Shown: positions 17,092 to 57,191 of the stretch, in pieces | Layout: each line of letters starts with the position of its first letter | How positions within the stretch are numbered: the first letter of the stretch is position 1 | NCBI RefSeq assembly: GCF_027924185.1 | Contig: NZ_BRVO01000003.1 | Location: forward strand, 271,968 to 335,967 | Source: Neptunitalea lumnitzerae | Lineage (GTDB): Bacteria; Bacteroidota; Bacteroidia; Flavobacteriales; Flavobacteriaceae | Direction: 5' to 3' | Length of the DNA: 64,000 nt | The notes under the pieces: model-generated | What the model was told of the DNA's origin: nothing | Databases searched by the model: none | What the model saw: the letters and a program-made list of their open reading frames with translations, nothing else | Position numbers and translations under genes: made by a program

Positions 17092-17862
17092 TTATAATGT
17101 AAATTTTTTAGGTGTACTACCTGTAAAAGCTTTAAAAACACGAATAAAATGAGATTGATCTGAAAATCCGTTTTCAAATACCACATCACTTAGTGAGCTA
17201 TAATCTTTAGAGGTAAGATGTACTAATGAGGTTTGAAATTGTATAACTTTAGCAAATTGCTTAGGTGATAATCCTGTTTCTAACAAAAAGCGACGTTCTA
17301 AAGTTCTTCTGTTTATACCTAACGAATTTACAATTGACTGTACTGTTTGTTGTCCCTTTGAAGCAAAAATCAAATCGATTGCTTGATACACATCAAAATC
17401 TAACTGTTGCTTTTTCTTTTCAAAATAAAACAATAACAACTCCGTAATAGTTTGTACACAAGTATCAATATCTTGTTTTTTAAGCTTCTCCACCAATTCA
17501 CCTAGCAAAAATTCTTTTTCGTCATCCAAATAGTAACAATCATCATTAATGCTTTTAGGAGCTACCTCAAAAAAGGAGCGAAGTACAAAAGGATATAACT
17601 GAAAAATAACAATGACATAAGTACCATCTAACTCTAATGTAATAGGCTGTATGGTTTGCCCATATAAAAATATAGGTGGCATTTGTTTGTTATGTGGTGC
17701 TACCACCAAACCTTTTGGTGCATTGTAATACATTAACCCCGGACATCCATCGGCAAAAAACGGAATAGAATTTTTCTTAGAAGCATCTAAGTTTTCTAAA
17801 ATCACAATGTTTTTTACAAAGAGTGAGATTGATTCTGCTGGTTTAATATAGTACTGAGTCAC
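17092..17862 (-). CDS. AraC family transcriptional regulator
   Basis: C-terminal HTH pair (RRTLERRFLLETGLSPKQF ... SDQSHFIRVFKAFTGSTPKKF). Confidence 0.8.
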   Translation of the reverse strand: MTQYYIKPAESISLFVKNIVILENLDASKKNSIPFFADGCPGLMYYNAPKGLVVAPHNKQMPPIFLYGQTIQPITLELDGTYVIVIFQLYPFVLRSFFEVAPKSINDDCYYLDDEKEFLLGELVEKLKKQDIDTCVQTITELLLFYFEKKKQQLDFDVYQAIDLIFASKGQQTVQSIVNSLGINRRTLERRFLLETGLSPKQFAKVIQFQTSLVHLTSKDYSSLSDVVFENGFSDQSHFIRVFKAFTGSTPKKFTL

Positions 17863-18071
17863 TGATTACGGCTATAGATGCAAATGTATAAAAGATATTA
17901 CAATAGCTAAAAACACATTGTTACACATAACAGTTACAAACCAAATAATCTCTTGCAAATTTAATCTTTAAAAAGCGACAAAAAATCGTTCAATAACACT
18001 TTCGTTATAAAGCATAAAAACACGACGAAAGCCTTTATTAACAAGTAGTTAAGTTTAGGTAAATTGTTATT

Positions 18072-18109
18072 TTTGACCCGATTTTAAGTTATCAAATTAC
18101 CTACATTTG
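18072..18109 (+). promoter_or_regulatory. candidate Bacteroidota sigmaA promoter (-33 TTTG, -7 TAcaTTTG) for the large T9SS gene
   Basis: TTTG at 18072-18075 and TACATTTG at 18102-18109, about 70 nt upstream of the ATG. Spacing is slightly long. Confidence 0.4.
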
Positions 18110-18178
18110 AACGCTCCAAAAAAATAACCTTAGAACTTACATGTTCACAAACACTAAAATGAAATAATTAATTTTACT

Positions 18179-21100
18179 ATGAAAAAACAATTACTTTTAA
18201 CCAAGTGGTTACTTGTTTTATGTATTTCCTTATTTTTTGGTTTTACGCAATTGCAGGCTCAAACCCTTTCTCCAGGTGATATTGCTATTATCGGAGTTGG
18301 AGTAGATTCAGAAGACGTTTACCTTGTTGCATTAAAAGACATAAATGCAGGCGAGATTATTTTCATTACAGATGAAGAAGCTTCTACCTCTGGATCTTTT
18401 AACTCTGGAGAAGGTTTTTTCAGTTTTACTACTCCAAACATAACTGCAGGAGATGTTTTTATGTTTAAAACAAGTGGAGTAACAGATATTGAAGGATCTG
18501 GAACTATTTCTGTAACCGGACATTCAGGTGCTTTTACTTTAAGCAATAGTGGTGATGGAGTTTACATATACCAATCTGCTAGTAACACCTATAACGGTAA
18601 TGATTATACCTTTTTAGGCTTTGCTGGAGAAGATTCAGGTGATGGTTCTATAGCCCCTGGATTAACAGAAGGCACTACTGCTATATATTTTGGTGGAGAT
18701 AACGGTAGATATGACGGCACAAGAACTGGTCTGGATCAAGCAGGTTTTTTAGCTGAAATTTATAATCCTACTAACTGGTCTACTTCTGGTTCTACAATGA
18801 CTTACGACACTACTGATTTTAGTTTTACTCCATCAGCATGCGCATTTTCATTCGGAGAAGCAACGTATACTTGTAACAGTAATACTTTAGGTAATAATAA
18901 TGATACTGTTCTAATTAGCATTCCTTACACAGGAAGCAGCTCTAACATAACTTCTGTTACAACTTCTAGTGCTGGTGTAATTGGCGGTGATGACCCTACT
19001 ACTGTTGCAGATGGAACAATAACAATTTCAGGATTATCTGAAGGTGACGCTTGGGATATTATAATAAACGGAGGAGATTGTGATGGTCTTGCAATAATTG
19101 AAACTGTTGGTGCTGCCATTTGTGACCCAGCCCCTACTACTTGTTTTGATTTAAGCACAGGTGCCGAGCTTTTTGAATTGGTTCCTGTAACTATGAACAC
19201 GCAAGGTGACGAGTGGACATACAGCTCAGGAAGTTATAGCATGAATGGATATTGTGGATCTGGATGTACTGAGGAATCTGATACGTGGTTAGTTTTTGGA
19301 CCATTAGACACTACTGGTGTTACTAACTTATCTTTATTATTTGAAAGCTCTGAAAGCTATTCTGGAACAGATTTATTAGTACAATATACTACTGCTTACT
19401 CTGGTTGCCCTACAAGTACTTCTTGGAACACCCTTGCTACTATAGCAAATGATGGTGACCAAAATATTGATTTATCGTCTGTTTCTGGTACCGATATTTT
19501 TATTGCTATTCAATACTACGATAACGACGGAACATATTCTTCATGGTCTCTTTATAACGTGGAATTAGAATCTTATGGTAGTTGCCCAGTATTGGGTACA
19601 AGACCTACTTCTAACTGTGCTATATGTGATATAGCTTTAGGAGAAGCTTCTTACGAATGTGATGCTATTACCAACGGTGCAGATACTGTTACCATTAGTA
19701 TCCCATATACAGGTATTGAGAATACAATTACCTCTTTAAGTACTACAGCTACTGGGGCTATTATTGGTGGTGATGACCCTGCTTTGGTTGCAGATGGTAC
19801 CATTATTATTACTGGTTTAGCAGAAGGAGATGCTTGGGACTTAACCATTAACGGAGGAGAATGTGACGGTAACACACTTTCAGGAACTATTTCTGATGTT
19901 ATTTGTTTACCTTGCCCTGCTACAGAAGGTGATTTAATTATTACTGAAATTATGCAAAACCCTAATATTGTTTCAGATGACAATGGAGAATATTTTGAAG
20001 TATACAATACTACAGGGGCGGCAATTGATATGCTTGGTCTTGTTATAGGATCTAATAACGCATCGGAAGAATTTACAGTAGATACTTCTGTTATTGTACC
20101 AGCTGGTGGATATGTGATTTTTGGAAAAAGTGCTGATACAGCTATTAATGGTGGTGTTGAAGTAGACTATGAATACCACAGTTCATTCTACTTAGGTAAC
20201 GGAGCAGACCAAGTAACCATATCTTGCCCAGGTTCTGGAAATGTTATTGATGAAGTGGTATATGACGGTGGTACGGCTTTCCCTGACCCTACTGGATCAG
20301 CTATGGAACTAAGCTTTGCTAGTTATAACAGTACAGATAATGACAATGGAGCTAATTGGTTTGAATCTCTAATTCCGTTTGGTGACGGTGACTACGGCAC
20401 ACCAAGATACAAAGGAAATTATTGGACAGGTGCTACAAGTACAGCTTGGACAGATGCTTCTAACTGGGAAGATACTCAAGTACCTATTACAGAAGATGCT
20501 GTTGCTATACCAGTATTATCTGGTTTAACTAACGAACCTACTATTACAAGTGGTGTTACAATAAGCAACCTAACTATTGGTTCTGGTGCTACACTTACAG
20601 TTGCATCAGGTGCAGCTATTGTAGTAACAGGAATTTCAGAAGGTACTGTTACAGTTGAAAGAGACTTAACAAATGCATGGCATTTAGTTTCTTCTCCGGT
20701 AGCCAATTTTACTCTAGAAGATTTTATTGCTGATAATTCATTAGCTACTGGTACTGGTAGTAATATAGGTTTAGCATCGTATGATACTGCTACCGATAGT
20801 TGGTTATATTCAACAGCAGCTACTACAGGCAACTGGACATCTGGTAACGGTTATACAACCTTATTATCTGGAGCTTCTACGGTAAGCTTTACAGGTACTA
20901 TACCAACTACAGATATAACCACAACTATTACTTCAGGTGGTACCTACGATTTTGGTTTGGTAGGTAACCCTTATCCTGCTTATATAACTATTGACGACTT
21001 ATTTTCTGCTAACAGTGCAGTGTTAAATGAAAATACAGTTTGGATGTGGGATGGTACACAATATGTTACTTTAAACACATTAAACGCTGGTTACATTGCT

Positions 21101-21919
21101 CCGTCACAAGGATTCTTTGTTAGTGGTGCTGGTGCTGTTAGTTTTACAAAAGATATGCAAACAACCAACACAGCAACTTTCTACAAAACTACAAGTGACG
21201 ATACGCATACATTAGAAAATGTAAACCAGGAAGAAATTGGAATGTTCAGACTTGCACTAACCAACAACGTTCAAAACGTTAGTACAGATATTTATTTTGT
21301 ACCAGGTGCAACACCAGGATTTGATAATGGCTATGATAGTTCTATGTTCTCTAGCGCTAACCCTGCTTTAGCCGTTTATACAACTACTGCTGCTAACGAT
21401 GTTACTAATAAATTGGCTATTCAAGCTATACCAACATCAGGCTATGCACAAATGTCAGTTCCTGTAGGTGTTATATCTTCAAATGGTGGTTCTGTAACCT
21501 TCAGTTTATCTCAAATGGTAGACTTACCAGTTGGGGTTCACATATATTTACAAGATAACTTAAATGGTACCACTACACAATTAGATACTTTTGGAGCTTA
21601 TTATGAAGTAGCCATACCAGCAGGTTATAACGGAACTGGAGATTTCTTTTTAAACATTACTAACGATGCTTTAGCCACAGATAACGTTTCTCTTACTACA
21701 GCAGAATTAATTACAAAAGGAAATGTAGTTACAATTTTAAATCTTGAACAAGATGCAACCTTAAATGTTTACAACATGTTAGGACAAAAAGTTCAAACAA
21801 CTAACCTGCAAGGTGCAAATAATCAATCAATCCAAGTATCAGTAACAACAGGAACCTACATTGTTTCTTTAGAAACTGAGAATGCTCAAATTACTAAGAA
21901 AATTATTATCAGAAATTAA
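18179..21919 (+). CDS. large secreted protein with lamin-tail domain and C-terminal T9SS sorting domain
   Basis: 1246 aa. Signal peptide. Internally duplicated module (..TYTCNSNTLGNNNDTVLISIPYTG..DAWDIIINGGDCDG and ..YECDAITNGADTVTISIPYTG..DAWDLTINGGECDG). LTD motif GDLIITEIMQNP..GEYFEVYNTT. C-terminal Por_Secre_tail-like ending ..TGTYIVSLETENAQITKKIIIRN. Confidence 0.8.
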   Translation: MKKQLLLTKWLLVLCISLFFGFTQLQAQTLSPGDIAIIGVGVDSEDVYLVALKDINAGEIIFITDEEASTSGSFNSGEGFFSFTTPNITAGDVFMFKTSGVTDIEGSGTISVTGHSGAFTLSNSGDGVYIYQSASNTYNGNDYTFLGFAGEDSGDGSIAPGLTEGTTAIYFGGDNGRYDGTRTGLDQAGFLAEIYNPTNWSTSGSTMTYDTTDFSFTPSACAFSFGEATYTCNSNTLGNNNDTVLISIPYTGSSSNITSVTTSSAGVIGGDDPTTVADGTITISGLSEGDAWDIIINGGDCDGLAIIETVGAAICDPAPTTCFDLSTGAELFELVPVTMNTQGDEWTYSSGSYSMNGYCGSGCTEESDTWLVFGPLDTTGVTNLSLLFESSESYSGTDLLVQYTTAYSGCPTSTSWNTLATIANDGDQNIDLSSVSGTDIFIAIQYYDNDGTYSSWSLYNVELESYGSCPVLGTRPTSNCAICDIALGEASYECDAITNGADTVTISIPYTGIENTITSLSTTATGAIIGGDDPALVADGTIIITGLAEGDAWDLTINGGECDGNTLSGTISDVICLPCPATEGDLIITEIMQNPNIVSDDNGEYFEVYNTTGAAIDMLGLVIGSNNASEEFTVDTSVIVPAGGYVIFGKSADTAINGGVEVDYEYHSSFYLGNGADQVTISCPGSGNVIDEVVYDGGTAFPDPTGSAMELSFASYNSTDNDNGANWFESLIPFGDGDYGTPRYKGNYWTGATSTAWTDASNWEDTQVPITEDAVAIPVLSGLTNEPTITSGVTISNLTIGSGATLTVASGAAIVVTGISEGTVTVERDLTNAWHLVSSPVANFTLEDFIADNSLATGTGSNIGLASYDTATDSWLYSTAATTGNWTSGNGYTTLLSGASTVSFTGTIPTTDITTTITSGGTYDFGLVGNPYPAYITIDDLFSANSAVLNENTVWMWDGTQYVTLNTLNAGYIAPSQGFFVSGAGAVSFTKDMQTTNTATFYKTTSDDTHTLENVNQEEIGMFRLALTNNVQNVSTDIYFVPGATPGFDNGYDSSMFSSANPALAVYTTTAANDVTNKLAIQAIPTSGYAQMSVPVGVISSNGGSVTFSLSQMVDLPVGVHIYLQDNLNGTTTQLDTFGAYYEVAIPAGYNGTGDFFLNITNDALATDNVSLTTAELITKGNVVTILNLEQDATLNVYNMLGQKVQTTNLQGANNQSIQVSVTTGTYIVSLETENAQITKKIIIRN

Positions 21920-21995
21920 ATTAAGACCAACAACTTAGAAGAATTTATAGAAGGTTCTTCTAAGTTGTATATCAATACATAAACCTATTAGTATT

Positions 21996-22205
21996 ATGGC
22001 TACTAAAAAAGAAAATCAACAAGAAGAGCTTATCACGAGAAAAGAAGCTCTTAAAAAAATCGGAACTTACAGTAAGTATGCAGCAGTAACAGCTTTAGGA
22101 ACTTACATTATGCTAAACCCTAAAAAATCTCAAGCCCAAAGTCCTGCTACACCAGGAACTGGATTTAGAGAGGCAGTTCTTTTTGACGAACTGAACAAAA
22201 ACTAA
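21996..22205 (+). CDS. small conserved peptide (69 aa) with conserved N-terminal 50 aa and variable C-terminal tail; putative exported/precursor peptide
   Basis: MATKKENQQEELITRKEALKKIGTYSKYAAVTALGTYIMLNPKKSQAQSP|ATPGTGFREAVLFDELNKN. Paralog at 25877. Own terminator downstream. Confidence 0.55.
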   Translation: MATKKENQQEELITRKEALKKIGTYSKYAAVTALGTYIMLNPKKSQAQSPATPGTGFREAVLFDELNKN

Positions 22206-22236
22206 ACTAACATTTTGCATAGTAAACACTTTGAAA

Positions 22237-22266
22237 AAGGAGCGATTTTAATCGCTCCTTTTTTTC
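22237..22266 (+). terminator. Rho-independent terminator after small peptide gene 1
   Basis: AAGGAGCGATT-TTA-AATCGCTCCTT followed by TTTTTT. Confidence 0.75.
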
Positions 22267-22799
22267 GTTTAAAACATTAAAAAACAGCACTTTAACACAT
22301 ATCTACTTTTGATATTAATTTTTTAAGACAATTCCTGTTAAAAAAACAAAACCTAAGGTAAAAGATACAGCTAAAAGCCACAAAAAACCTAATTAAATTA
22401 CTAATAAACAGAAAGTTAATGCTAAAAAATTATATCTTTAAAATATAAAACAAACATTGCAAAATACCCTCTAAACATTCCATTTTCACGATTTAATCAT
22501 TTTATCATAAATTAACAAAAACAAAATAAAACATATTCATAATTGTTTAATCTTCATAATAATCAGCCTTTAATTAAATTATTATAACAAAAAATCATTT
22601 CTAATAGAAATATCAAAAACAAATAATTAAATAAAATACTGATTAACAACACATTACAAACAAAAACTCTCAACACCTCAACAATCACTTTTATACATAA
22701 AAACTACTTTATTTACTCCAACTGATTATGCTTCAATATATTTAACAAAGTATTTTTATACTGTAAAGTAATTTTAACATCAAATCAAAACGTTTTTCT

Positions 22800-22807
22800 T
22801 ACATTTG
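22800..22807 (+). promoter_or_regulatory. candidate -7 element TAcaTTTG for the second T9SS gene
   Basis: TACATTTG 46 nt upstream of the ATG at 22854. Identical octamer to the one upstream of the paralog at 18179. Confidence 0.4.
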
Positions 22808-22853
22808 TTCCTGAAAAGCTGCTTTGTTAAAGCACTAAAAATTAATAGAAATT

Positions 22854-25814
22854 ATGGCGATCAAATTACCCAGGACTTTATTGTCCCTTTACTTAACCAT
22901 GGCTTTTTCCCTAGCTCTTACTTGCTCATGGGGACAAACCTTAACAGCAGGTGATTTTGCCATTGTTGGTTTTAATGCCAACGATGAGTATGTTACCATT
23001 GCTGCCTTATCAGACATTCCTTCTGGAGAAACGGTTTTCTTTACAGACGAAGAATGGAATGGAGCAACCTTTAATACAGGAGAAGGCTTCTTAGAATGGA
23101 TTACACCAACCATTTCGGCTGGTGATGTATTTACCCTAACCACTAGTGGTATGAGTGGTATTACCGGAGCAGATCAAGGTACCCTTTCAGCCCTTACTGG
23201 AAGTTTTGTACTCGGAAATGCTGGTGATGGTGTTTTCATTTATCAAACGGATGACAACACTTACAACAGTACCAACGTTAACTTTTTAAGTTTTGCTGGT
23301 GAAGATGCTACCTCAGCAGGAACACTTACTGGCACTAATTTAACCCTTGGTTATACTGCAATTTATATGGGTGCAGTAAATGGTGAATATGTTGAGACTA
23401 GAAATGACCAAGATAAAGATGGCTTTCTTTATTTAATCAATGACAACTCTAACTGGATTACCTACGGAAATGCTTCTTCATTAGTATTTGATGATACTGA
23501 TTTTACCTTTACCCCTGGAAGTGTTTGTAATATTACTTTTGCCACCCCAACTTACACTTGTACCTCTGAAACTTTAGGAGCTAACAATGATCAAGTAATC
23601 GTTTCAATTCCTTTTACCGATGCAAACCCGACAATTGAATCTGTAACAACCTCAACTGTTGGTACAATTGGTGGTGATAATCCTACAACGGTTACTAATG
23701 GTATTATAACCATTTCTGGTTTAACTGAAGGTGACTACTGGGATATTGTAATAAACGGTGGTAGCTGTGATGGAATTACTTTATCTGATACTATATCAGA
23801 TGTTATTTGTGATCCTTGCCCTAACGAAGGAGATCTTATTATTACAGAAATAATGCAAAACCCAAGCGCAGTAGATGATGCGTATGGTGAGTATTTTGAA
23901 GTATATAACACTACTGATCATGACATTGACATGATAGGACTTACAATTGGTTCTAACTATGCTCCAGAAGAATTTACAATAACTACTTCTTTGGTAGTTG
24001 CACCAGGAGCGTTTGTAGTATTTGGTAAAAATTCAGACACTGCTGCTAATGGAGGTGTTACACTAGATTATACCTACCCTACTACATTTAATTTAGGAAA
24101 CAGTTCAGATCGTATTACTATTTCATGTAACGACGACTTAATTGATAGAGTGGCGTACGATGATGGAGCTACATTCCCAGACCCAATTGGGGCATCTATG
24201 GAACTAAATTCAGAACACTACAACAGTACCGATAATGATTTAGGAAGTAACTGGTACACCGCTACTGTTGAATACGGTAATGGTGACTACGGTACTCCTG
24301 GATATCGTGTGAATGAATGGACCGGCGCTGTTGATACAGACTGGTTTAATACCGCAAACTGGTCTAACAATACGGTACCTAATAGTTCTGATGCTGTTTA
24401 CATTCCAACTGCTGCATCATTAACAAACCAGCCAACTGCTGCAACAGGTTCTATTACAATAAATAGTTTATTAATTGGTAATGGTTCAGAACTTACTATT
24501 GGTTCTGGTGTTCCAATTGTAGTTACTGATGCTGCTGAAGGTATTATTACGGTAGAAAGAGACCTTACAAATACATGGCATTACATATCTACTCCAGTAG
24601 TTGAAGCTTCTTTAGAAGATTACATTTCTTCTGCTCCTTTAGCTAGTGGTACTGGTAGTAACTTAGGATTGGCTTCTTATACTACCTCAAGTGATAGTTA
24701 TGTTTACGCAACTAACGCAACAAATGGTACATGGTTTTCTGGTACAGGATATTCTACGTTACTTTCAAGTAATGCAACAGTAAGTTTAACTGGTGAGTTT
24801 CCTACTAACAATATTGCGGTAACCTTAGCTGCTGGTGGTGTTAGAGATTTTAACTTAATAGGTAACCCTTACCCATCATATGTAACGGTTGCAGATTTAT
24901 TAGACCAAAATTCAGGTGTTTTAAATGAAAACACTTTATGGTTTTGGGAGAATAATCAATTTGTAACTATTAATGTTTTAAATGGTACTAATATTGCACC
25001 AATGCAAGGATTTATAGTTAGTGGTAGTGGTAACTTCTCTTTTACAACTGACATGCAAACTGTAGAAACAAGTACTTTTTACAAAACTACCAATAGCTAT
25101 ACACATGCTAATGTTCAGCCAGAAACTTTAAGTATGTTTAAATTACAAGTAGCCAACAGTGTTAACGCTATTTCTGCTACCGATATTTATTTAGTATCTG
25201 ATGCTACAACTAGCTTTGATAACGGTTATGATAGTTCAATGTTTTCTGGTACAGCTTCAAACTTTGGTGTATATACCACTTCTGTAGCTAACGATGTAAA
25301 CAACAAGCTTGCTATACAAGCCTTACCTACTACAGGATTTAATCAAATGCTAATTCCAGTTGGAGTTATTGCTAACAATGGAGGTACAGTAACTTTTAGT
25401 TTATCGCAAATTGAAAATTTACCAGCAGGAGTTCATGTATATTTACAAGACAACTTAAATGGTACAACTACGCAATTAGATACTTTTGGCGCTGATTACC
25501 AAGTTACCTTACCTACTGGATACAACGGAACAGGAGATTTCTTCATTAGCCTAACAAATGAAGCTCTTGCAACAGATAGTATTACAACAAATAATACACA
25601 AATAATTGCTAGCGGTGCTACTGTTACTGTAGTTAATTTAGAAGAAGATGCTACCTTACATTTATTCAACATGCTTGGACAACAAGTTACTAGCAAGAAA
25701 ATACTTGCTGCTAACAGCCAAGATGTTTCTTTTGATGTAACACCAGGTACATATATCTTATCTTTAGAGGCTAGCACTTTTAAAGAAAACAAGAAAATCA
25801 TACTTAAAAAATAA
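22854..25814 (+). CDS. large secreted lamin-tail-domain protein with C-terminal T9SS sorting domain (paralog of 18179..21919)
   Basis: 986 aa. N-terminal region collinear with the paralog (GDFAIVGFNANDEYVTIAALSDIPSGETVFFTDEE..). LTD motif GDLIITEIMQNPSAVDDAYGEYFEVYNTT. C-terminal Por_Secre_tail-like domain. Confidence 0.8.
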   Translation: MAIKLPRTLLSLYLTMAFSLALTCSWGQTLTAGDFAIVGFNANDEYVTIAALSDIPSGETVFFTDEEWNGATFNTGEGFLEWITPTISAGDVFTLTTSGMSGITGADQGTLSALTGSFVLGNAGDGVFIYQTDDNTYNSTNVNFLSFAGEDATSAGTLTGTNLTLGYTAIYMGAVNGEYVETRNDQDKDGFLYLINDNSNWITYGNASSLVFDDTDFTFTPGSVCNITFATPTYTCTSETLGANNDQVIVSIPFTDANPTIESVTTSTVGTIGGDNPTTVTNGIITISGLTEGDYWDIVINGGSCDGITLSDTISDVICDPCPNEGDLIITEIMQNPSAVDDAYGEYFEVYNTTDHDIDMIGLTIGSNYAPEEFTITTSLVVAPGAFVVFGKNSDTAANGGVTLDYTYPTTFNLGNSSDRITISCNDDLIDRVAYDDGATFPDPIGASMELNSEHYNSTDNDLGSNWYTATVEYGNGDYGTPGYRVNEWTGAVDTDWFNTANWSNNTVPNSSDAVYIPTAASLTNQPTAATGSITINSLLIGNGSELTIGSGVPIVVTDAAEGIITVERDLTNTWHYISTPVVEASLEDYISSAPLASGTGSNLGLASYTTSSDSYVYATNATNGTWFSGTGYSTLLSSNATVSLTGEFPTNNIAVTLAAGGVRDFNLIGNPYPSYVTVADLLDQNSGVLNENTLWFWENNQFVTINVLNGTNIAPMQGFIVSGSGNFSFTTDMQTVETSTFYKTTNSYTHANVQPETLSMFKLQVANSVNAISATDIYLVSDATTSFDNGYDSSMFSGTASNFGVYTTSVANDVNNKLAIQALPTTGFNQMLIPVGVIANNGGTVTFSLSQIENLPAGVHVYLQDNLNGTTTQLDTFGADYQVTLPTGYNGTGDFFISLTNEALATDSITTNNTQIIASGATVTVVNLEEDATLHLFNMLGQQVTSKKILAANSQDVSFDVTPGTYILSLEASTFKENKKIILKK

Positions 25815-25876
25815 ATCTTTTGGATTAATGGCTGTGTAATTTTTATGCAGCCACTAACACCCCAATACGCATAAAT

Positions 25877-26077
25877 ATGAAAACGAACTCAAACGAAAAT
25901 CAAGAATTAATGACTCGTAAAGAGGCATTAAAGAAAATGGGAAAATTTGGTAAGTATGCTGCTGTAACAGCACTAGGAACTTATATTATGCTTAGTCCTA
26001 AAAAATCTCAGGCTCAAAGTCCAACTGAACCTGGTGAAGGATTTAAAGCACCTTTGCTTTTCCCCCCAGAAAAGTAA
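25877..26077 (+). CDS. small conserved peptide (66 aa), paralog of 21996..22205; putative exported/precursor peptide
   Basis: MKTNSNENQELMTRKEALKKMGKFGKYAAVTALGTYIMLSPKKSQAQSP|TEPGEGFKAPLLFPPEK. N-terminal 50 aa nearly identical to the paralog, C-terminal ~20 aa diverged. Confidence 0.55.
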   Translation: MKTNSNENQELMTRKEALKKMGKFGKYAAVTALGTYIMLSPKKSQAQSPTEPGEGFKAPLLFPPEK

Positions 26078-26096
26078 AATAATCACATTACAAAAT

Positions 26097-26130
26097 AAAA
26101 AGTCTTAGCCCTGCTAAGACTTTTTATTTT
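26097..26130 (+). terminator. Rho-independent terminator after small peptide gene 2
   Basis: AAAAGTCTTAGC-CCT-GCTAAGACTTTT followed by TATTTT. Confidence 0.7.
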
Positions 26131-26161
26131 ATATGTACCTTAGTAATTAAAAGCAGACCCC

Positions 26162-27283
26162 ATGAAAAAGAACTCCGTACTAATAAAACCTATAGAAGAT
26201 AAAGCTTTTGTATGGTTTAAAAATAGTAATCAGTATAGTATTTTTGATCCATTTCTTGCCGACATTATTGAACATATAGATCAAGATACACCATTAGAGA
26301 TTGTTACACAACACATACAAAATGAAACTGGTTTATCAGTAGAAAAAGTACATGAAGTAATTGACGAACTTACACAACTAATAACTACTACCCTCCCTGT
26401 GGACGATCATTCTCAAAGTACTTTTGAAATACCTGAAGCTACCTTTTACAAAACGTATTACTACACTATTAACAATGCAACCTTTTGCTTTCATTATGGA
26501 AGTGAATATGTAATGAATGAAATACACCTTAAGTTTGCACATTTAGTTACAAAAAAGGTTAAAGAACCCAACCATACAATTACCATTCTTGAGTCTGACA
26601 ATACATTTTCACTACAAGTAGATGAAATATTTAATAACAATTATACGGAAGATAATTTTCATTACTTACAAGGTAAATTATCTATGTATATAATGATGTT
26701 AGCATATAAAAAACCAGAGAGAGAATGGCTAGGTGTTTTTCACGCCTCGGCTATATCATACAATGGTAAAAGCGCTATGTTATTAGGAGATTCTGGCAAC
26801 GGTAAAAGCACTGCCCTAGCCATTGCTCATGCCAACGGATTTAATTGTATTGCAGACGATTTTGTACCTATGGGCTCTGCACTACAAAACATCTACCCTT
26901 TTCCGGCCGCCATATCTGTTAAAGAAAAAAGCTTACCTGTTTTAGCTAATTACTATCCTGATATAATGGAAAAGCCAAGTTTTAAAAACAGATTAGGCAA
27001 AACGGTAACTTTTATTCCAACTGACTCACATATTACTATTACTTACCCTTGCCATAACCTTATATTTATTAAATACAAAGCAGGCTCTAATTTACAAGTA
27101 GCACCAATAACAAAAACAGATGCTTTTCAGCAATTGGTACCAGACTCTTGGTTATCTCCGGAGCCAGAAAATGCAGAAATATTTTTAAATTGGTTTAACA
27201 CTGTTAAGACCTATCAGCTAACCTACTCCAAAACAGAAGATTTATTAGCTACTCTAAAAGATATACTGGATGGTAACCATTAA
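26162..27283 (+). CDS. PqqD-like (RRE) domain fused to HPr-kinase-related P-loop domain protein
   Basis: N-terminal ~70 aa (VLIKPIEDKAFVWFKNSNQYSIFDPFLADIIEHIDQDTPLEIVTQHIQNETGLSVEKVHEVIDELTQL) fits the PqqD/RRE pattern. The central LLGDSGNGKSTALAIAHANGF matches the HPr kinase/phosphorylase Walker A (GDSGvGKSe). Confidence 0.6.
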   Translation: MKKNSVLIKPIEDKAFVWFKNSNQYSIFDPFLADIIEHIDQDTPLEIVTQHIQNETGLSVEKVHEVIDELTQLITTTLPVDDHSQSTFEIPEATFYKTYYYTINNATFCFHYGSEYVMNEIHLKFAHLVTKKVKEPNHTITILESDNTFSLQVDEIFNNNYTEDNFHYLQGKLSMYIMMLAYKKPEREWLGVFHASAISYNGKSAMLLGDSGNGKSTALAIAHANGFNCIADDFVPMGSALQNIYPFPAAISVKEKSLPVLANYYPDIMEKPSFKNRLGKTVTFIPTDSHITITYPCHNLIFIKYKAGSNLQVAPITKTDAFQQLVPDSWLSPEPENAEIFLNWFNTVKTYQLTYSKTEDLLATLKDILDGNH

Positions 27284-28323: not shown

Positions 28324-28710
28324 ATGGCTAAGTTCAATAAATTAAAATATGTGATTTTTTTAGGGGCATTAATTTTCGTTATAGGTGCTTGTAGTGAAGA
28401 GGCTACTGAAAAAGAAACTAATATGATGCATACTACTAATTTTAATGGTAGCAAGTGGAAGGAAAAACATGGTAACAACTACACCTACCGCCCAATTATG
28501 GTAGATAGCGTATTGCACAATGATAGCATACGACATTTAACTAAATCTGAAATTTTACAAACATTAGGTACTCCAGATAGGGAAAATAACAATTACTTTT
28601 ATTACTTAATTGAACAAAACAAACTTGGTTTTGTTACCCTACACACCAAAAATTTGGTCATTAAATTTGCTACCAATGACAGTATCGAGTGGATAAAACT
28701 ACACGAATAA
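28324..28710 (+). CDS. small lipoprotein, hypothetical
   Basis: Signal peptide with lipobox (LIFVIGAC|SEE), 128 aa. Confidence 0.5.
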   Translation: MAKFNKLKYVIFLGALIFVIGACSEEATEKETNMMHTTNFNGSKWKEKHGNNYTYRPIMVDSVLHNDSIRHLTKSEILQTLGTPDRENNNYFYYLIEQNKLGFVTLHTKNLVIKFATNDSIEWIKLHE

Positions 28711-31448: not shown

Positions 31449-32552
31449 CTATTTACCATGCACAGAAAAAACATCCATCAACTGTTTAGCAATACTTCCA
31501 TTACCAGAAACAGTAATTTCTCCAATTTTTTCTGCAATTTTCTCTACAAACTCCATTTCCTTAAGTTTGAAAAGCATCTCATTCTCTTCCATTAGTTTAG
31601 CTGTGTTCAGCAAACTTCTGGTAGATGCCGTCTCTTCTCTACGAGTAATTACATTGGCCTGTGCTTGCTTTTGCGCAATAAGCACTTGGTTCATAATATC
31701 TTTCATTTCTCCCGTAAGAATTACGTCTCTAATACCACAACTTAAAATTTCTATTCCAAGTTTAGTACCTACGGGTTTAATCTCTGCAAAAACTGCATCT
31801 GCAATACCCTCTTTTTGCTCTAGCAACTCATCTAATGTATAAGCACCTATGTATGCTCTTAAAGCCAATTGCATAGCAATGTAAGCCTGCTTTTCAAAGT
31901 CCTTATTTTCTAGTAAAGCGGTTTCTATGTTCACTACCTTATATTGCGCAAAGAAGTTCACACGAATAGCGGCTTTATCTTTGGTCAACAATTCTTGGCC
32001 AGCAATTTCCATTTGTTGCACACGCATATCAGTTTTCACTATTTTAATGGTAGTATCGTTCTTCCAAAAACGGTACGTACCAGCGCCTAACGTTTTTACG
32101 TAAACATCATCTACAATCATTACTGCCTTTTCAGTTGCTCCAACTTCAAAAACTCTTACATGCTGAGATAGCTCGTATCTACTAAACAACATTTTATCTA
32201 TTTGCTCAGTAATGTAAATTTTACTTTTATCCACTGTTAAAAAGGTAAACTCTTTAAGGGTATTCCAGTAGTAATGAATACCGGTAATTAATACCCCACG
32301 GTATCTACCGTTTTCATACAACAATACAATCTCATTATCCTTTACATCTACCACATGCAACATACTTGCCAGTTGTTTATCTTGTAGCAAAATTTCAGGT
32401 GCTTTGGTAGGCTTAAAAGGGAATCGTTCATCTGCTATGGTTACACTTTCTGCAAAACCAAGCCAGTGTATACCTGCTGTAAGTACACGTTGGTAATCTC
32501 CCTTTTTAAATACCAAACCTACGTTTCCTTTGTTAATTCTAATTCGTTTCAT
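31449..32552 (-). CDS. SPFH/band-7 domain protein
   Basis: 367 aa. Central PHB-like region (..AAIRVNFFAQYKVVNIETA..IAMQLALRAYIGAYTLDELL..) and C-terminal coiled coil. Confidence 0.65.
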   Translation of the reverse strand: MKRIRINKGNVGLVFKKGDYQRVLTAGIHWLGFAESVTIADERFPFKPTKAPEILLQDKQLASMLHVVDVKDNEIVLLYENGRYRGVLITGIHYYWNTLKEFTFLTVDKSKIYITEQIDKMLFSRYELSQHVRVFEVGATEKAVMIVDDVYVKTLGAGTYRFWKNDTTIKIVKTDMRVQQMEIAGQELLTKDKAAIRVNFFAQYKVVNIETALLENKDFEKQAYIAMQLALRAYIGAYTLDELLEQKEGIADAVFAEIKPVGTKLGIEILSCGIRDVILTGEMKDIMNQVLIAQKQAQANVITRREETASTRSLLNTAKLMEENEMLFKLKEMEFVEKIAEKIGEITVSGNGSIAKQLMDVFSVHGK

Positions 32553-33210
32553 GGTTCATTTTTTTGGTTACACATTTTATTTACAACTATCCCGGGTTTT
32601 CTTTAATCATCAAATTATAACAATAATTATCTCTGATTTTCTATATTTATTTGAATAGATATTCTACCAATTCATTCTCTCAATAATCTTGACAAATTTG
32701 GTCTACCTATAAAAATCTTGAAAATCAAGGCAGCAGCGTTGGATTTAGATAAAATACTGTTTGAGCGATAGCGAGTTGTATTTTATCTGTGGCTGGTAAT
32801 GCCGTAGTACTTTCTTAGGTTTTTATAGTAAACCTTGACTTTTTGGTTCGTTTTAGCTCGTACATTCTTATTGTTTTAAGATCTCGTGAATCTTCGATTT
32901 GTGTCAAGACAAAATGAACAAATACATGCTTTTCTTTAACTCTAATAGAAAGTAATGCTCCTAAACTTATCCAAATCATACGGAAAACAAACATTTACTA
33001 TTGGTTGCACGCTTTTGTTACAAATGAACATCTTACTAAAACATAAGACCGTTGATTTTAAACAGCCACATGCGCAGAATACTAAATCGTTCTGTTCTCT
33101 GGTATGCCCCGAACTGTTTTTTAACTAATTGGTTAGGTGGTTAAAAAACCAAGTTCAGAAACATTACTTTTCCTTTCATGGTAATCAGTTTTACAAGATA
33201 ATTAGCTTGA

Positions 33211-33395
33211 GTTAACCTACATCCAACGTGTAGTGCTCTAACCGCTGAGCTACGTATCCAAATAATACGATGGGAGTCGAACCCATGCAAAAAAATCTAT
33301 TGTTCTACCAATTGAACTACGTATTTCAATAATACGACGGGATTTGAACCCGCAACACATAGAGGAGCTATTGATATGGTAATAGCGTACCTTCA
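33211..33395 (-). pseudogene. three tandem degenerate tRNA-like units (tRNA remnants)
   Basis: Minus-strand units at ~33211-33259, 33262-33326 and 33331-33395. The first has acceptor 5' half, D-arm and a 5-bp anticodon stem but no T-arm. The second has acceptor, D-arm (GTTC-AATTGGTA-GAAC) and T-arm (ATGGG-TTCGACT-CCCAT) with the anticodon arm collapsed. The third has a T-arm (GCGGG-TTCAAAT-CCCGT) and poor 5' parts. Confidence 0.4.
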
Positions 33396-34221
33396 AAACC
33401 AGACTGCATATAAAATCATCATACGTCTCCGCAACGTTTTATACAATGGTGCTATTAGAAACACGCAACAAGGTCTGCATTGAAATCTTTAATATCTTAC
33501 TCGATAATCGAGATTGGACACTCCGAGAACCAGCCTCGAAGTAGTTTATGATTGTGTTTTAATTACAATTCAAATATCTATACCATCAGCGCAGTTATTC
33601 TGCGTAGTTGTTTCGAATTATAAATTTTATAGAGAGGATATAAAAAATCCGAAACATTTTGGTTATTAGCTCCGGATTTCTCATTTGATACGTTGTTATG
33701 AAAAGATCCGAAGCCAATAAAACCTTCCTAGTATATGTTGTAATAAACTCTTATATGGATTGCTAAACATCGCTTCTTGTTATTAATTGCTATTTCTGTT
33801 TTTTTGACAGGGCAAAGATGTAAACTATTTTTTAATTACACAAGAAAAATATTTATTTAAAACACTGGTTATCAGTTATTTAAATTTAAAATAGGCAATA
33901 GATTTCCTGTCCGCATATCAGCAGATTAGTATACAATTTAAAATGAGATAGTTACTTAAAAAGTATATTTTCAACAGCTATGTATTTTTTTTGCATAAAT
34001 ATTTTTCATTCCTTCAAAAACATAAAAAAAGCGCTCAATTTTCATTGAGCGCTTTGTTATAAATTAGATGTACTTATATCATTTATCTATTTAAAATCTT
34101 ACAACAAGAACCAAAACGCCCATTCGGATATGCTTTATACCCTGCTAATAGAAATGCCTGTGGCATTGAAAAACTAGTATGTTTACGTATTGTTCTCATT
34201 ATAATGCAAATATATAATTTA

Positions 34222-34857
34222 TTAATTTAATAAAAATAAAACTCCAATATCAAAAGAACCTCTGTCATTTTGAGTAGAAAAACCTGAAGAGGAACCATCG
34301 GCGAAAACATCTGTAAAACCGTATTGCTCATCATAAGCAAAGTAGATACTCGTTTTACTATTAAGTCTAACTTTATACCCTATCCCCACAGCTAAACCAA
34401 CATCCGTAGCATTTAAGGCATCTTTAATATCATTTCCATGTTCATCATCTTCTGCACTAAGCAAAAATCCTGTATACAATCCAAAATTCAAATACCAATT
34501 TCTCCTTCTTCCAAAGTGCCAGTTAGCCATTACCGGAATAGTTACATAGTTTAAACTAAAATCGGTGTAATACATTTCTCCAGTGTCTATGTTTTGCACA
34601 TATCCATTACCCCAACCTTTGGCATCGTATAATAGCTTTGCTTTAAGCCCCCATCTATCTGAAAAATAATACTCTCCTGTAGCTCCAAAGTTAATACCAA
34701 AAGTACCCTCTGTACCACCATTAAGATCTGAGGAATAAATAACAATGGCTCTACCAAAACCAAGGTTAGCTCCTACTTCAAAATCGCCTTGGTCTTGAGC
34801 ATTAGACACTGAAAAGAACCCGGCTACTGCCAGTAAGCTTAAAAAAAGATTTTTCAT
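34222..34857 (-). CDS. outer-membrane beta-barrel protein (porin family)
   Basis: Signal peptide ..SVSNAQ, amphipathic beta-strands, ends ..DIGVLFLLN. Confidence 0.65.
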   Translation of the reverse strand: MKNLFLSLLAVAGFFSVSNAQDQGDFEVGANLGFGRAIVIYSSDLNGGTEGTFGINFGATGEYYFSDRWGLKAKLLYDAKGWGNGYVQNIDTGEMYYTDFSLNYVTIPVMANWHFGRRRNWYLNFGLYTGFLLSAEDDEHGNDIKDALNATDVGLAVGIGYKVRLNSKTSIYFAYDEQYGFTDVFADGSSSGFSTQNDRGSFDIGVLFLLN

Positions 34858-35749: not shown

Positions 35750-35924
35750 AGAAATAAAATCTAAAAGACAAATGTACTAAACAAGTATGGCTAAATGGTT
35801 TTCTTTCAGAAAAAACGAAAAAGGATCACATAAAAAAAATCCTCCCAAAGGCACACGGGAGGATTTTTGGTGTTAGTAATTAATACTAATCTAAAAACAA
35901 ATATTAAACTATATGATGTGGTAG

Positions 35925-38372: not shown

Positions 38373-39371
38373 ATGAAGCTTATCAATGTTATTGAAAACT
38401 CAGACATACCTAAGTACAAGCAAATTATATATTCTGTAGAAACGGCTATTGCTGAAAAACGATTGAAGCGAAAAGACAAACTGCCTTCTATTAATAAAAT
38501 AGCTTTGGAGTTTTCATTATCTAGAGATACTGTTTTACAAGCCTATAATGATTTAAAAAAACGAGGCATTATTTCCGCCATGCCAGGAAAAGGATATTAT
38601 ATTAAAAGTGAAGAGTTTACTACCGAGCAACGCATCTTTCTTTTATTTGATGAACTGAACTCTTTTAAAGAAGACTTATACAACTCTTTTAAAGAAACTA
38701 TGGGCAACTTTGCTAATATTGACATTTTCTTTCATTACTTTAATATTGAGGTTTTTAAAAAGTTGATTGACGAGAATAATGGTGATTATAATAAGTATGT
38801 TATAATGCCTACCATTTTAAAAGATGCACACATTCATATTAAAAAGCTTCCTAAAAACAACGTTTATATTTTAGACCAAACCAATGAACAACTGCAGGAA
38901 TACCCGTCTGTTCATCAAAATTTTGTAGAGGATATTTACAATGCTTTACTTACTGGTAAAGATGCCTTAAAGAAGTACCAAAAACTCATTTTTATATTTC
39001 CCGACTTTAAGCAGCCTACAGGTATGAAAATTGGGTTTCTAAAGTTTTGCAAGGATCATCAATTTAAAGCTGAAATTATTTCTGATATAAAACAATATGA
39101 ACTTTCACCTGGAGAAGTTTTTATTATACCAGACGATAGAGATTTGGTAAAAGCCATTGAAAAGATAAAAGAAAAAGGCTTAGAAATAGGAAAAGAAATT
39201 GGCATTATATCCTACAATGATACTCCTTTGAAAAAAGTTGTAGCTAATGGTATAACCACCATTTCAACCGATTTTAATTCTATGGGAAGTATTATGGCTG
39301 AAATGGTGGTAGGGCAAAAAAAAGATGTTATTGAAAACAAAAGTAGCCTTATCATAAGAGGCTCTTTATAA
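38373..39371 (+). CDS. GntR-type HTH regulator with sugar-binding (LacI-like periplasmic-binding-fold) effector domain
   Basis: N-terminal winged-helix (KLPSINKIALEFSLSRDTVLQAYNDLKKRGII) plus ~250 aa C-terminal domain. Divergent from uxuA. Confidence 0.65.
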   Translation: MKLINVIENSDIPKYKQIIYSVETAIAEKRLKRKDKLPSINKIALEFSLSRDTVLQAYNDLKKRGIISAMPGKGYYIKSEEFTTEQRIFLLFDELNSFKEDLYNSFKETMGNFANIDIFFHYFNIEVFKKLIDENNGDYNKYVIMPTILKDAHIHIKKLPKNNVYILDQTNEQLQEYPSVHQNFVEDIYNALLTGKDALKKYQKLIFIFPDFKQPTGMKIGFLKFCKDHQFKAEIISDIKQYELSPGEVFIIPDDRDLVKAIEKIKEKGLEIGKEIGIISYNDTPLKKVVANGITTISTDFNSMGSIMAEMVVGQKKDVIENKSSLIIRGSL

Positions 39372-39377
39372 TTTTTT

Positions 39378-40592
39378 TTATTTTGCCTTAAGCAATGCTA
39401 TTTCTAACCCTCTTAACTCTGCCAAACCTCGTAAACGACCAATAGCAGAGTATCCTGGGTTGGTATGTTTTTCTAAATCATCTAACATTTGATGTCCATG
39501 GTCTGGGCGCATAGGTAAACGTACATCTGTTCTGCCCTCACTTATACGGCGCTGTTGCTCTTCTAACAGAGCCTTCATAACCGCATACATATCTACATCT
39601 CCCTCTAAATGATTAGCTTCAAAAAAGTTACCTTCTTCATCTCTTTTGGTAGCCCTTAAATGCACAAAGTTAATTCTGTGCCCTAATCGTTGTACCATAC
39701 CCTCCAAATCATTATCAGGTCTTACACCATAAGAACCAGTACAAAAACAAAGTCCGTTATACTTTGAATCTACAGCCTCTAGCAATTCAGTAGCATCTGC
39801 TTCTGTACTTACCACTCTAGGCAATCCCAGAATAGGAAACGGAGGATCATCTGGATGAATAGCCATGAGCACCCCTACCTCTTCAGCAACCGGAATAATT
39901 TCTTTTAAAAAAGCATATAAATTAGCTTTTAATACTTCTTCATCTATACCCTTATAGCTATCTAAAACTTCCTGAAACTTATCTAGCGTATATCCTTCTT
40001 CAGCACCTGGTAAACCCGCTATAATATTGTTTATTAATAACGTCTTTTTCTTGGTATTCATACCATGATACCTCACTGCAGCCTTTTCTAATTCTTCTTG
40101 TGAATACGCTTCAGCAGCGGCAGGTCTCTTTAATAAAAAGAGTTCAAAAGCAGCAAAATCAATTTTATCAAATCGCAAGGCTTTAGAACCATCTGGCATT
40201 TCAAAACTTAAGTCAGTACGTGTCCAATCTAGTACTGGCATAAAATTATAGCATACCGTATCTATACCACAAGCAGCTAAATTTTTAATACTCTGCTTAT
40301 AATTTTCAATATACAGTTTATAATCTCCTGTACGCCTTTTAATATCCTCGTGAACTGGTATACTTTCCACTACCGACCATGTGAGTCCGCTACTTTCTAT
40401 AACCGTTTTACGCTTCTGTATTTCTGCTACCGACCAAACTGTTCCATTAGGTATATGATGCAATGCATTTACAATACCAGTGGCACCGGCCATTTTTATA
40501 TGAGATAAAGGCACTGAGTCGTTAGGCCCATACCATCTCCATGTTTGCTCTAATGCCATACTAAACTCCGTTAAATGCTGTAAAACCTCCAT
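39378..40592 (-). CDS. uxuA: mannonate dehydratase
   Basis: [16 protein letters not shown].. N-terminus and xylose-isomerase-like TIM barrel typical of UxuA. Confidence 0.9.
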
Positions 40593-41391
40593 CTACAGGT
40601 ACTGTAATCCCTGTCACAAACTTAGATGCAGGATTACATAACCATAACACCGTACTCACTAAATCTTCAGGTTCTCCAAAGTGCCCCATAGGCGTCTGCG
40701 ATAAAATCTTTTCTCCTCTAGAAGTTAAGCTACCGTCTTCATTAGTTAATAAGGTACGGTTCTGTTCTGTTAAGAAAAATCCAGGTACCAAGGCATTCAC
40801 ACGTATACCTTCTTTAGCAAAATATACTGCTAACCAGTGTGTAAAATTACTAATAGCGGCTTTTGCTGCGCTATAAGCCGGCACTTTAGTTAATGGCAAC
40901 CCCGCACTAACAGATGATATATTTAAAACACTACACTCTTTTCTACCTACCATATCTTTGGCAAACACTTGTGTTGGTATAAAAGTACCCATGTAGTTTA
41001 GATTGTACACATGTTCTACTCCGCCCAATCCTAATTTAAAGAAATCTTGAAAATCATCATCTTTTGGGGTTGTATTATCATAAAACTCATCTTTGGTAAC
41101 TCCATCAGGATGATTACCACCTGCGCCATTTAACAAAATATCAACCAATCCTAATTTCTCATTTATTGTTTTATGTGCAGCTTCTATGGTAGCTTTATCA
41201 CAAACATCTACACTAAGCGCTAAAGCTGTACCACCGGTAGCTTTAATTTCTGCCGCTAACTTTTCTCCTTTTTCCAGACTTCTACCCAAAATAGCAACTT
41301 TAGCACCTTCGGCTGCTATTGCTTTTGTTAGGGCACTCCCTAAAACTCCGGTACCTCCGGTTATTACAGCAACTTTATTTTGTAGTAACAT
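40561..41391 (-). CDS. uxuB: SDR-type D-mannonate oxidoreductase
   Basis: [15 protein letters not shown] Rossmann motif. Co-operonic with uxuA, as for the Bacteroidota SDR-type UxuB. Confidence 0.7.
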
Positions 41392-42592: not shown

Positions 42593-42598
42593 TGGAGA

Positions 42599-44770: not shown

Positions 44771-44795
44771 ATCTTAAATTGTTTACTTCCAAAAA

Positions 44796-47393: not shown

Positions 47394-47412
47394 TCTAGTT
47401 ATTTATTGGTAC

Positions 47413-48393: not shown

Positions 48394-48397
48394 ACAC

Positions 48398-51493: not shown

Positions 51494-51515
51494 TCGATGG
51501 TTATTTTTATTTCAT

Positions 51516-56455: not shown

Positions 56456-56457
56456 CC

Positions 56458-57162: not shown

Positions 57163-57191
57163 TAAACACATTACCTTAAAAGAAAATAAAG

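Follow-up and report, generated by a model that had tools for sequence, protein, structure and literature searches.

Linear polyphosphorylated peptides (LPPs) of Bacillota are the described products closest to those of the locus reported here. Their kinase, LppK, phosphorylates Ser3 of the core peptide, beside a signal-peptidase-type cleavage site, with up to several phosphates (PMC13381572). Cleavage needs prior modification, the loci sit with capsule genes, and the family is, by its description, confined to Bacillota (Popov et al., Nat Commun 2026; PMC13381572). Related chemistry is known for the lasso peptides paeninodin and pseudomycoidin, in which a precursor Ser is first phosphorylated and afterwards glycosylated by homologues of HPr kinase and by nucleotidyltransferases (PMC8498205). 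We analyzed 64,000 nucleotides of Neptunitalea lumnitzerae (contig NZ_BRVO01000003.1, positions 271,968 to 335,967; hereafter the window), in which two tandem units, 18179-22205 and 22854-26077, share the same order: a gene for a large protein with a lamin-tail domain (LTD) exported through type IX secretion (T9SS), a hairpin, a small open reading frame (ORF) of 69 or 66 aa, and a strong terminator. The large genes are here called bigA and bigB and the small ones pepA and pepB. By analogy with the described systems, we read the locus as bicistronic units of T9SS cargo plus a phosphorylated precursor resembling those of RiPPs (peptides made by ribosomes and modified after translation), which would make it the counterpart of the LPPs in Bacteroidota; we put the probability of this reading at roughly 0.6.

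A first-pass annotation made from the letters of this region had reported the four ORFs and the tandem arrangement of large and small genes, and each element that it listed was present. It stopped at 26130 and missed the two genes directly 3', which encode an HPr-kinase-like enzyme fused to a RiPP recognition element (RRE) and a nucleotidyltransferase. Because these 2 genes follow pepB, the peptide was recast as a RiPP-like substrate for modification. The positions of all features are collected in Table 1.

Comparison with described systems

In enzyme logic the locus resembles LPP loci, with a predicted RRE, an HprK-like kinase and an uncharacterized nucleoside triphosphate (NTP) transferase, here of PF14907, for a ribosomal precursor. 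Both have a conserved leader with a variable core and no macrolactam cyclase, both place the modified Ser (here predicted) 2-3 residues past a signal-peptidase-type cleavage site, and both are associated with cell-surface loci. The differences are also several. In LPPs the RRE is a discrete protein (LppB) and in this locus it is part of the kinase, the host is a member of the Bacteroidota rather than the Bacillota, and neither a SipW-like peptidase nor an MsbA-like exporter is present at the locus. Precursor genes lie one per cargo behind T9SS genes, whereas in LPP loci they are clustered with the enzymes. The leader here, I(T/S)RKEA(L/I)KKIGxYGKYAALTALGTYxILNPxKAQA, is Tat/Sec-like and contains neither YxxPxVLxHQxIxFETxxS nor YxxP.

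The phosphorylated lasso peptides share the pairing of an HPr-kinase homologue that phosphorylates a precursor Ser with a nucleotidyltransferase that adds sugars. They differ in that the candidate target Ser here sits close to the start of the core and theirs at the C-terminus, and in that the core here has no Asp or Glu at positions 7-9 for ring closure. No cyclase or B2 protease was found within the 64-kb window. A lasso-peptide cluster was rejected on the same grounds: Pfam scans of 41 of the 53 window ORFs of at least 120 aa, the other 12 mostly overlapping larger genes, gave no asparagine-synthetase-like macrolactam cyclase and no transglutaminase-like B protease.

A different likeness is to T9SS cargo with a type B C-terminal domain (CTD) and its PorP/SprF partner, for example SprB-SprF, in which a small gene for a dedicated partner regularly comes after the cargo gene and is duplicated along with it (PMC10202324). 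The cargo here has a type A CTD, and the partner is a peptide of 55 aa and not an outer-membrane beta-barrel.

The HPr-rel-A system of NCBIfam/TIGRFAMs links a kinase of this kind to a PqqD-family chaperone and a nucleotidyltransferase. By sequence the kinase comes closest to the family HprK-related kinase A (TIGR04352; E 7e-17), which belongs to the same trio of functions, but it scored 61.4 bits where the cutoff is 200, its RRE is fused, and a substrate peptide family is evident here. We found no report of the peptide family, of the conserved module of the large proteins described below, or of a link between RiPPs and the T9SS in a literature search. The presumed chemistry of the locus is LPP-like, its architecture is new, and its one-to-one genetic coupling to secretion cargo is unprecedented.

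Pairing of the peptide gene with a T9SS gene

A scan of one genome per species gave at least 452 matching stretches, from which 79 Flavobacteriaceae loci were kept for analysis; a hidden Markov model (HMM) run over these loci and the window yielded 95 peptide genes. A protein search with the peptide returned 52 relatives in Polaribacter and Tenacibaculum. Directly 5' of 88 of the 91 peptide genes with enough upstream sequence was a gene whose product has the C-terminal ~500 aa in common with bigA and bigB, including the part that we call the mid module. The gap between the two genes had a median of about 24 nt in relatives, for which the gaps of 76 and 62 nt in the window are outliers. In a reverse test, 80 metagenome loci were retrieved with the C-terminal module of the large protein alone, independently of the peptide, and a peptide gene was immediately 3' of 60 of the 80 mid-module genes. 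The pairing was also kept, with other cargo domains, in 4 of 5 very divergent peptide subfamilies, 2 of which had a kinase and/or transferase adjoining.

Such pairing greatly exceeds what chance would give. Since it holds in both directions, the T9SS gene, the peptide gene and the terminator constitute a conserved bicistronic operon, and this unit is almost certainly real. The functional pair of large protein and small peptide that had been suggested from the duplication is borne out by these counts. As far as the sequences can tell, the link between peptide and T9SS cargo is a genetic one; that the peptide also acts physically with the cargo is a suggestion we make tentatively and with some doubt.

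Peptides were 82% identical between genomes compared to 41% for their partners, and within one genome peptides were up to 98-100% identical while partners were 39-42% identical. Near-identical peptide genes had been duplicated alongside each new cargo gene. This speaks against a lock-and-key partner co-evolving with each protein; the pattern fits a peptide that would serve shared, conserved machinery and be needed in proportion to cargo. Stop-codon read-through, or another fusion of the peptide to the large protein, was rejected because the gap was in frame in only about 40% of loci, near the 33% expected.

Large T9SS proteins

Both large proteins carry the features of T9SS type A cargo, namely a sorting domain (TIGR04183/PF18962) and an N-terminal Sec signal peptide. 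The TIGR04183 scores were 39 bits for bigA and 30.7 bits for bigB against a cutoff of 23, and the LTD (PF00932) was found by Pfam scan in both, with E 3.7e-12 and 3.6e-14, respectively. The two are paralogues; their C-terminal 770 aa are 57% identical and their N-terminal 320 aa 49% identical.

The conserved partner of the peptide is neither the LTD nor the N-terminal homology that the first-pass annotation had pointed out. The region common to homologues is a C-terminal part of ~420 aa for which there is no Pfam model (the mid module, with the motifs WTG..DW..A.NW, GNPYPS and NGYDSS), plus the sorting domain. Among homologues of bigB residues 470-986, the N-terminal cargo was exchanged freely for LTD, CBM4_9, GH16, VCBS, PKD, Laminin_G_3 or DUF285, the DUF285 variant carrying Gly-rich repeats. 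Since these N-terminal domains vary, the LTD is incidental cargo, and by sequence comparison the conserved partner of the peptide is the mid module with the sorting domain. A confident AlphaFold model of the mid module (pLDDT 89) had several beta-rich domains.

A separate module of ~100 aa flanked by Cys (…ISIPYTG…GGDDP…DGTI.ISGL.EGDAWD..INGG.CDG…) was present in two copies in bigA, at residues ~222-319 and ~481-580 with an insert of ~160 aa between them, and in one copy in bigB. The second copy and the insert therefore account for the 260-aa difference in length between the two proteins.

Selection on the peptide genes and anatomy of the peptides

The pepA and pepB products are 72% identical. 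Across the 95 homologues, differences at codon positions 1, 2 and 3 numbered 24495, 6879 and 70946, and 71% of differing codons were synonymous; this third-position bias indicates that the reading frame is under strong purifying selection. When 1.84 billion representative proteins were searched with a profile, 314 clusters at 50% identity were returned, 135 of them at E <= 1e-10. The 2 units in the window are clearly duplicates of each other, so that the small ORFs might be considered non-functional by-products whose pairing reflects recent duplication of one cassette. The codon-position pattern, the numbers of genomic matches and clusters, and an arrangement kept across genera with partners only about 40% identical make the chance of this practically negligible. 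Nor are such ORFs commonly missed by annotation, as had been supposed, since many are called in public assemblies and deposited as "hypothetical protein."

Peptide anatomy was counted in 140 distinct sequences. Precursors were 50-90 aa long, with the leader consensus I(T/S)RKEA(L/I)KKxGxY..AALTAxGT(Y/F)xxLNPxKAQA. The leader has a polar N-region with the invariant (T/S)-R-K-E-A-L-K-K, a weakly hydrophobic stretch with much Ala, Thr and Gly (hydropathy over 11 residues of 1.7 compared to 2.8 in the Sec signal of bigA), a Lys at -4, and a signal-peptidase-type A-x-A site. Positions -3, -2 and -1 were A or S in 98%, Q in 100% and A in 100% of the sequences. Position +1 was variable (Q, A, S, M, T and others), and position +2 was Ser in 99%, usually followed by P-x-x-P-G-x-G-F and the stop. 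Exactly 10 residues followed A-Q-A in 102 of the 140; the window peptides, with 9-12 additional C-terminal residues, are atypical. The leader resembles a signal peptide, one that by its residues is Tat-like in all but the second arginine, and this exported-peptide-like anatomy agrees with the earlier proposal of an exported peptide. The peptides had a single, weak match, to a Tat-target family, when scanned against Pfam, NCBIfam and PADLOC.

The 314 clusters share the leader and an A-Q-A-x-S junction and have hypervariable cores, ranging from Pro/Gly-rich to Cys-rich cores of ~90 residues. The peptides are RiPP-precursor-like because a conserved leader is combined with a variable core. One Cys-rich subfamily (L166:1788-2219, P0325; also P0317, P0329 and P0331) has the same leader and a core of about 90 residues (…CCPTCYDGDPSTPCP…), lies after a gene with mid module and CTD, and adjoins a nucleotidyltransferase gene. 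Further modifications or disulfide-rich products are possible for these cores.

Kinase and nucleotidyltransferase

A search of the kinase sequence against the Protein Data Bank (PDB) returned only noise, and a fold search was needed. The AlphaFold2 model of residues 1-75 has the three strands followed by three helices of the RRE fold, and so the kinase is, going by the model, an enzyme with a built-in leader-peptide-binding domain. A deposited N. lumnitzerae protein identical to the product of 26162-27283 is named "phosphoenolpyruvate carboxykinase (ATP)"; the name is misleading because the relation to that enzyme is at the level of the fold only and an RRE is present.

Of the 79 genome loci, 25 had the kinase gene, as does the window, and in every case it closed the array at the 3' end. 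The gene directly before it was a peptide gene in 24 of the 26 and a mid-module gene without peptide in the other 2, and in most related loci a nucleotidyltransferase gene followed it. Retrieval with the kinase only gave four contexts beyond the window; a look-up with the window's own kinase (P0137) returned no record. Three of them, in Polaribacter MED152, Tenacibaculum mesophilum and a third contig, had the order T9SS gene, peptide, kinase, nucleotidyltransferase. The flanks in the two named species were alike, with TrkA/TrkH upstream and Mur-ligase and alpha-2-macroglobulin genes downstream, and the kinase locus therefore looks ancestral. The fourth contig had a divergent trio of peptide, kinase and transferase without a T9SS gene (L165:9627-12134), and retrieval with the peptide gave another trio without a T9SS partner (L174:8001-10569). 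The L165 trio shares its region with repeats, a transposase and TraO. The L174 trio adjoins a locus for polysaccharide synthesis that includes a NusG/UpxY-like gene, a setting reminiscent of the capsule genes near LPPs in Bacillota. In Polaribacter sp. R77954 (L026:10259-12751), and also in L025, the kinase followed the peptide without a nucleotidyltransferase, and a Mur-ligase gene was directly next. The kinase is thus the core enzyme, and the transferase is dispensable in some genomes.

From this gene order and the RRE, the peptide is probably the substrate of the kinase. The first-pass annotation had suggested an exported peptide that partners with the surface protein. Spelled out, this would be a partner that stays unmodified, either exported or anchored in the membrane, and works as a chaperone, a tether or a cofactor of secretion in the manner of PorP/SprF, with the enzymes as unrelated neighbors. 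The pairing statistics, the signal-peptide-like anatomy and the T9SS precedent of cargo-specific partner genes (PMC10202324) are all in keeping with that explanation, as is the lack of a nearby kinase in two thirds of the peptide loci sampled. However, the kinase bears a predicted leader-binding RRE, comes directly after the peptide gene in nearly every locus where it occurs, and accompanies the peptide even where there is no T9SS gene. The usual mature part of ~10 residues is moreover too small for a chaperone or tether, and the invariant Ser beside the cleavage site mirrors the LPP phosphosite. We consider an unmodified partner quite unlikely.

The two trios raise another explanation, a free-standing secreted RiPP (a signal, an antimicrobial or a matrix component) that rides on cargo promoters, its coupling being a matter of regulation or dosage without interaction. 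This explanation would also lead one to expect that peptides fail to co-diversify with the partners, that some mid-module genes (25%) have no peptide, and that LPPs in Bacillota lack a secretion-cargo partner. Yet hitch-hiking on promoters would not pick out one module, and the gene upstream had the mid module and CTD in 88 of 91 cases, whatever its cargo. The pairing also persists across subfamilies with unrelated cores, and the tight gap of ~24 nt together with duplication of the peptide along with each cargo gene suggests a stoichiometric need. A free RiPP is, on balance, unlikely, although less so than an unmodified partner.

Proposed mechanism

Under the reading that we prefer, that of T9SS cargo coupled to a phosphorylated RiPP-like precursor, the fused RRE would dock on the leader in the cytoplasm and the kinase would (poly)phosphorylate Ser+2. 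On the model of pseudomycoidin and the LPPs, the nucleotidyltransferase might then decorate the phosphate. The peptide would be exported, and a general signal peptidase would remove the leader at A-Q-A. The modified peptide would act stoichiometrically with the co-translated T9SS protein, and the mid module could possibly bind the peptide or carry or attach it en route to the cell surface.

T9SS cargo folds in the periplasm before transport, and the PorU sortase can ligate the C-terminus of cargo to anionic lipopolysaccharide (A-LPS), amino acids and short peptides (PMC10202324). Given periplasmic folding and this range of nucleophiles, carriage of the peptide by the cargo or its ligation to the cargo is mechanistically conceivable. 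A more specific version, in which the modified peptide, exported and freed of its leader, accompanies the mid module and is the dedicated acceptor or anchor that a PorU-type sortase ligates to the new C-terminus of the cargo as it removes the sorting domain, seems to us highly improbable. Were it true, the surface protein would end in a phospho- or glyco-peptide tail that replaces the anionic-LPS anchor of Porphyromonas, and no earlier RiPP would have had the role of modifying a secreted protein in trans; the mode of T9SS surface attachment would be new as well.

Several observations weigh against the coupling of T9SS cargo to a phosphorylated precursor. One quarter of the mid-module genes (20 of 80) had no peptide gene, and of the peptide loci sampled just about one in three adjoined a kinase gene. 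Mid module, peptide and kinase are separable, since both peptide-less mid-module genes and the trios L165 and L174 exist. The kinase scored far below the cutoff of its nearest family, the [Y/W]xxP motif of lasso and LPP leaders is absent from the leader of the window family, and a fold search with the mid module gave no informative match. The leader does not have the twin arginine of the Tat signal (S/T-R-R-x-F-L-K), having R-K instead (R in 99%, K in 96%); the Tat model TIGR01409 did not match, and only the small Tat-target family TIGR02811 did so weakly (E 0.035). Finally, Pfam scans of 41 of the 53 window ORFs of at least 120 aa found no dedicated leader peptidase or exporter at the locus.

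With respect to cleavage, no SipW-like signal peptidase I was present at the locus or in related loci. The sole S26 peptidase in the window is of the LepB type and is 31 kb away beside dapB; it is a candidate for the leader-cleaving enzyme. No ABC transporter was found in the window or in related kinase-nucleotidyltransferase loci.

If correct, this reading would extend phospho-RiPP kinase and nucleotidyltransferase chemistry from Bacillota to marine Bacteroidota and give a pair of orphan enzymes their likely substrate. The comparison also reveals a conserved, unnamed C-terminal module of T9SS cargo, which in nearly all cases is inherited together with the gene of a precursor peptide. A small modified peptide may thus be needed or carried by some of the T9SS surface proteins, glycan-binding and glycan-degrading ones among them, of the abundant flavobacteria of algal blooms (Polaribacter, Tenacibaculum), which would bear on retention and release of T9SS cargo outside Porphyromonas and on the purpose of LPP-type peptides.

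Hairpins, terminators and promoter motif

Both hairpins and both terminators folded far better than shuffled sequence. The inter-cistronic stem-loops reported earlier both exist (z of -5.25 and -2.75), but the stem of hairpin 1 (-21.2 kcal/mol) is 17 bp and not the 13 bp first given. Their proposed role in setting differential expression did not hold up, the hairpins being specific to the window and not conserved; the gap of ~24 nt in relatives is too short to hold one, so the hairpin is not a general regulatory device. The strong intrinsic terminators were confirmed in both units (z of -4.7 and -9.4). Across loci, a terminator-like site was present about 20 nt 3' of 76 of 94 peptide genes compared to 31 of 300 random windows, and the gap between peptide and kinase genes contained one in 18 of 22 related loci. 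A terminator at that point suits low expression of the enzyme relative to its substrate. No RNA family was found by Rfam in the region.

The -7-like promoter element TACATTTG described by the first-pass annotation is indeed present 69 and 46 nt 5' of bigA and bigB but is not enriched, occurring 6 times in the window compared to 5.1 expected by chance. Because this count is no higher than chance, a promoter role is argued from position only; the placement 5' of gene starts is suggestive. It also lies 5' of the divergent AraC-type regulator gene (17881-17888, minus strand) and of a C92 amidase gene (35769-35776, minus strand), and 4 of the 6 occurrences are promoter-proximal. A scan for internal promoters found no TAnnTTTG 5' of pepA, pepB or the kinase gene, and in other loci this motif was 5' of 14 of 74 large genes, an uninformative count for which crude start calls are the probable cause.

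Features of the window and neighboring genes

Table 1. Features of the two units and the adjoining enzyme genes, numbered from the first nucleotide of the window.
Feature	Position (nt)	Strand	Basis or remark
AraC-type regulator	17092-17862	-	precedes bigA
TACATTTG, Bacteroidetes -7-like promoter element	18102-18109	+	69 nt 5' of bigA ATG
bigA, T9SS cargo, 1246 aa	18179-21919	+	ORF call, domain scans
bigA LTD	19919-20263	+	Pfam PF00932
bigA mid module	about 20414-21670	+	shared with homologues
bigA type A sorting domain	about 21698-21916	+	TIGR04183
bigA other parts			signal peptide, N-terminal homology region, duplicated Cys-flanked module
Hairpin 1, inter-cistronic, 17-bp stem, without U-tract	21930-21968	+	fold z -5.25
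pepA, precursor, 69 aa	21996-22205	+	ORF, HMM, homologues
pepA leader, residues 1-47	21996-22136		predicted cleavage after S-Q-A47
pepA invariant Ser49	22140-22142		core Q48-N69
Intrinsic terminator ending unit 1	22233-22270	+	z -4.74
TACATTTG, -7-like element	22800-22807	+	46 nt 5' of bigB
bigB, T9SS cargo, 986 aa	22854-25814	+	
bigB LTD	23823-24158	+	
bigB mid module	about 24309-25565	+	
bigB type A sorting domain	about 25593-25811	+	
Hairpin 2, inter-cistronic, 11-bp stem	25829-25853	+	z -2.75
pepB, precursor, 66 aa	25877-26077	+	ORF, HMM, homologues
pepB leader, residues 1-46	25877-26014		predicted cleavage after S-Q-A46
pepB invariant Ser48	26018-26020		core Q47-K66
Intrinsic terminator ending unit 2	26092-26135	+	between pepB and kinase gene; z -9.43
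RRE-fused HPr-kinase-like enzyme, 373 aa	26162-27283	+	
Kinase RRE, residues 1-75	26162-26386		three strands then three helices
Kinase P-loop domain, about residues 95-373			GDSGNGKST
PF14907 (NTP_transf_5) nucleotidyltransferase, 349 aa	27270-28319	+	E 1.1e-33; overlaps kinase stop by 14 nt

An ORF of 128 aa with a lipoprotein signal (…VIGAC) and a weak BamE-like match is present at 28324-28710, 4 nt past the stop of the nucleotidyltransferase gene. It was not seen at the same place in the Polaribacter or Tenacibaculum loci and may be a lineage-specific addition to the operon. The genes beyond it are unrelated. A defense system was considered and rejected, as PADLOC gave no match for the kinase, the nucleotidyltransferase, both peptides, bigB or the 128-aa ORF.

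Elsewhere in the window, parA-parB, dapB and then a signal peptidase I with an N-terminal DUF5684 domain lie at 54178-58742. A polysaccharide-utilization-type cluster at 39378-52817 (minus strand) contains two GH43 genes and genes for an alpha-L-arabinofuranosidase, GH2, BNR_4, DUF4861, mannonate dehydratase and SDR proteins, and is adjoined by a regulator of the GntR/periplasmic-binding type at 38373-39371 (plus strand). In an ORF-poor stretch at 32552-34222, the segment 33262-33413 (minus strand) received two tRNA calls that do not overlap, one by Rfam at 33262-33326 (42.9 bits) and one by ARAGORN at 33329-33413, an 85-nt tRNA-Asn with anticodon ATT.

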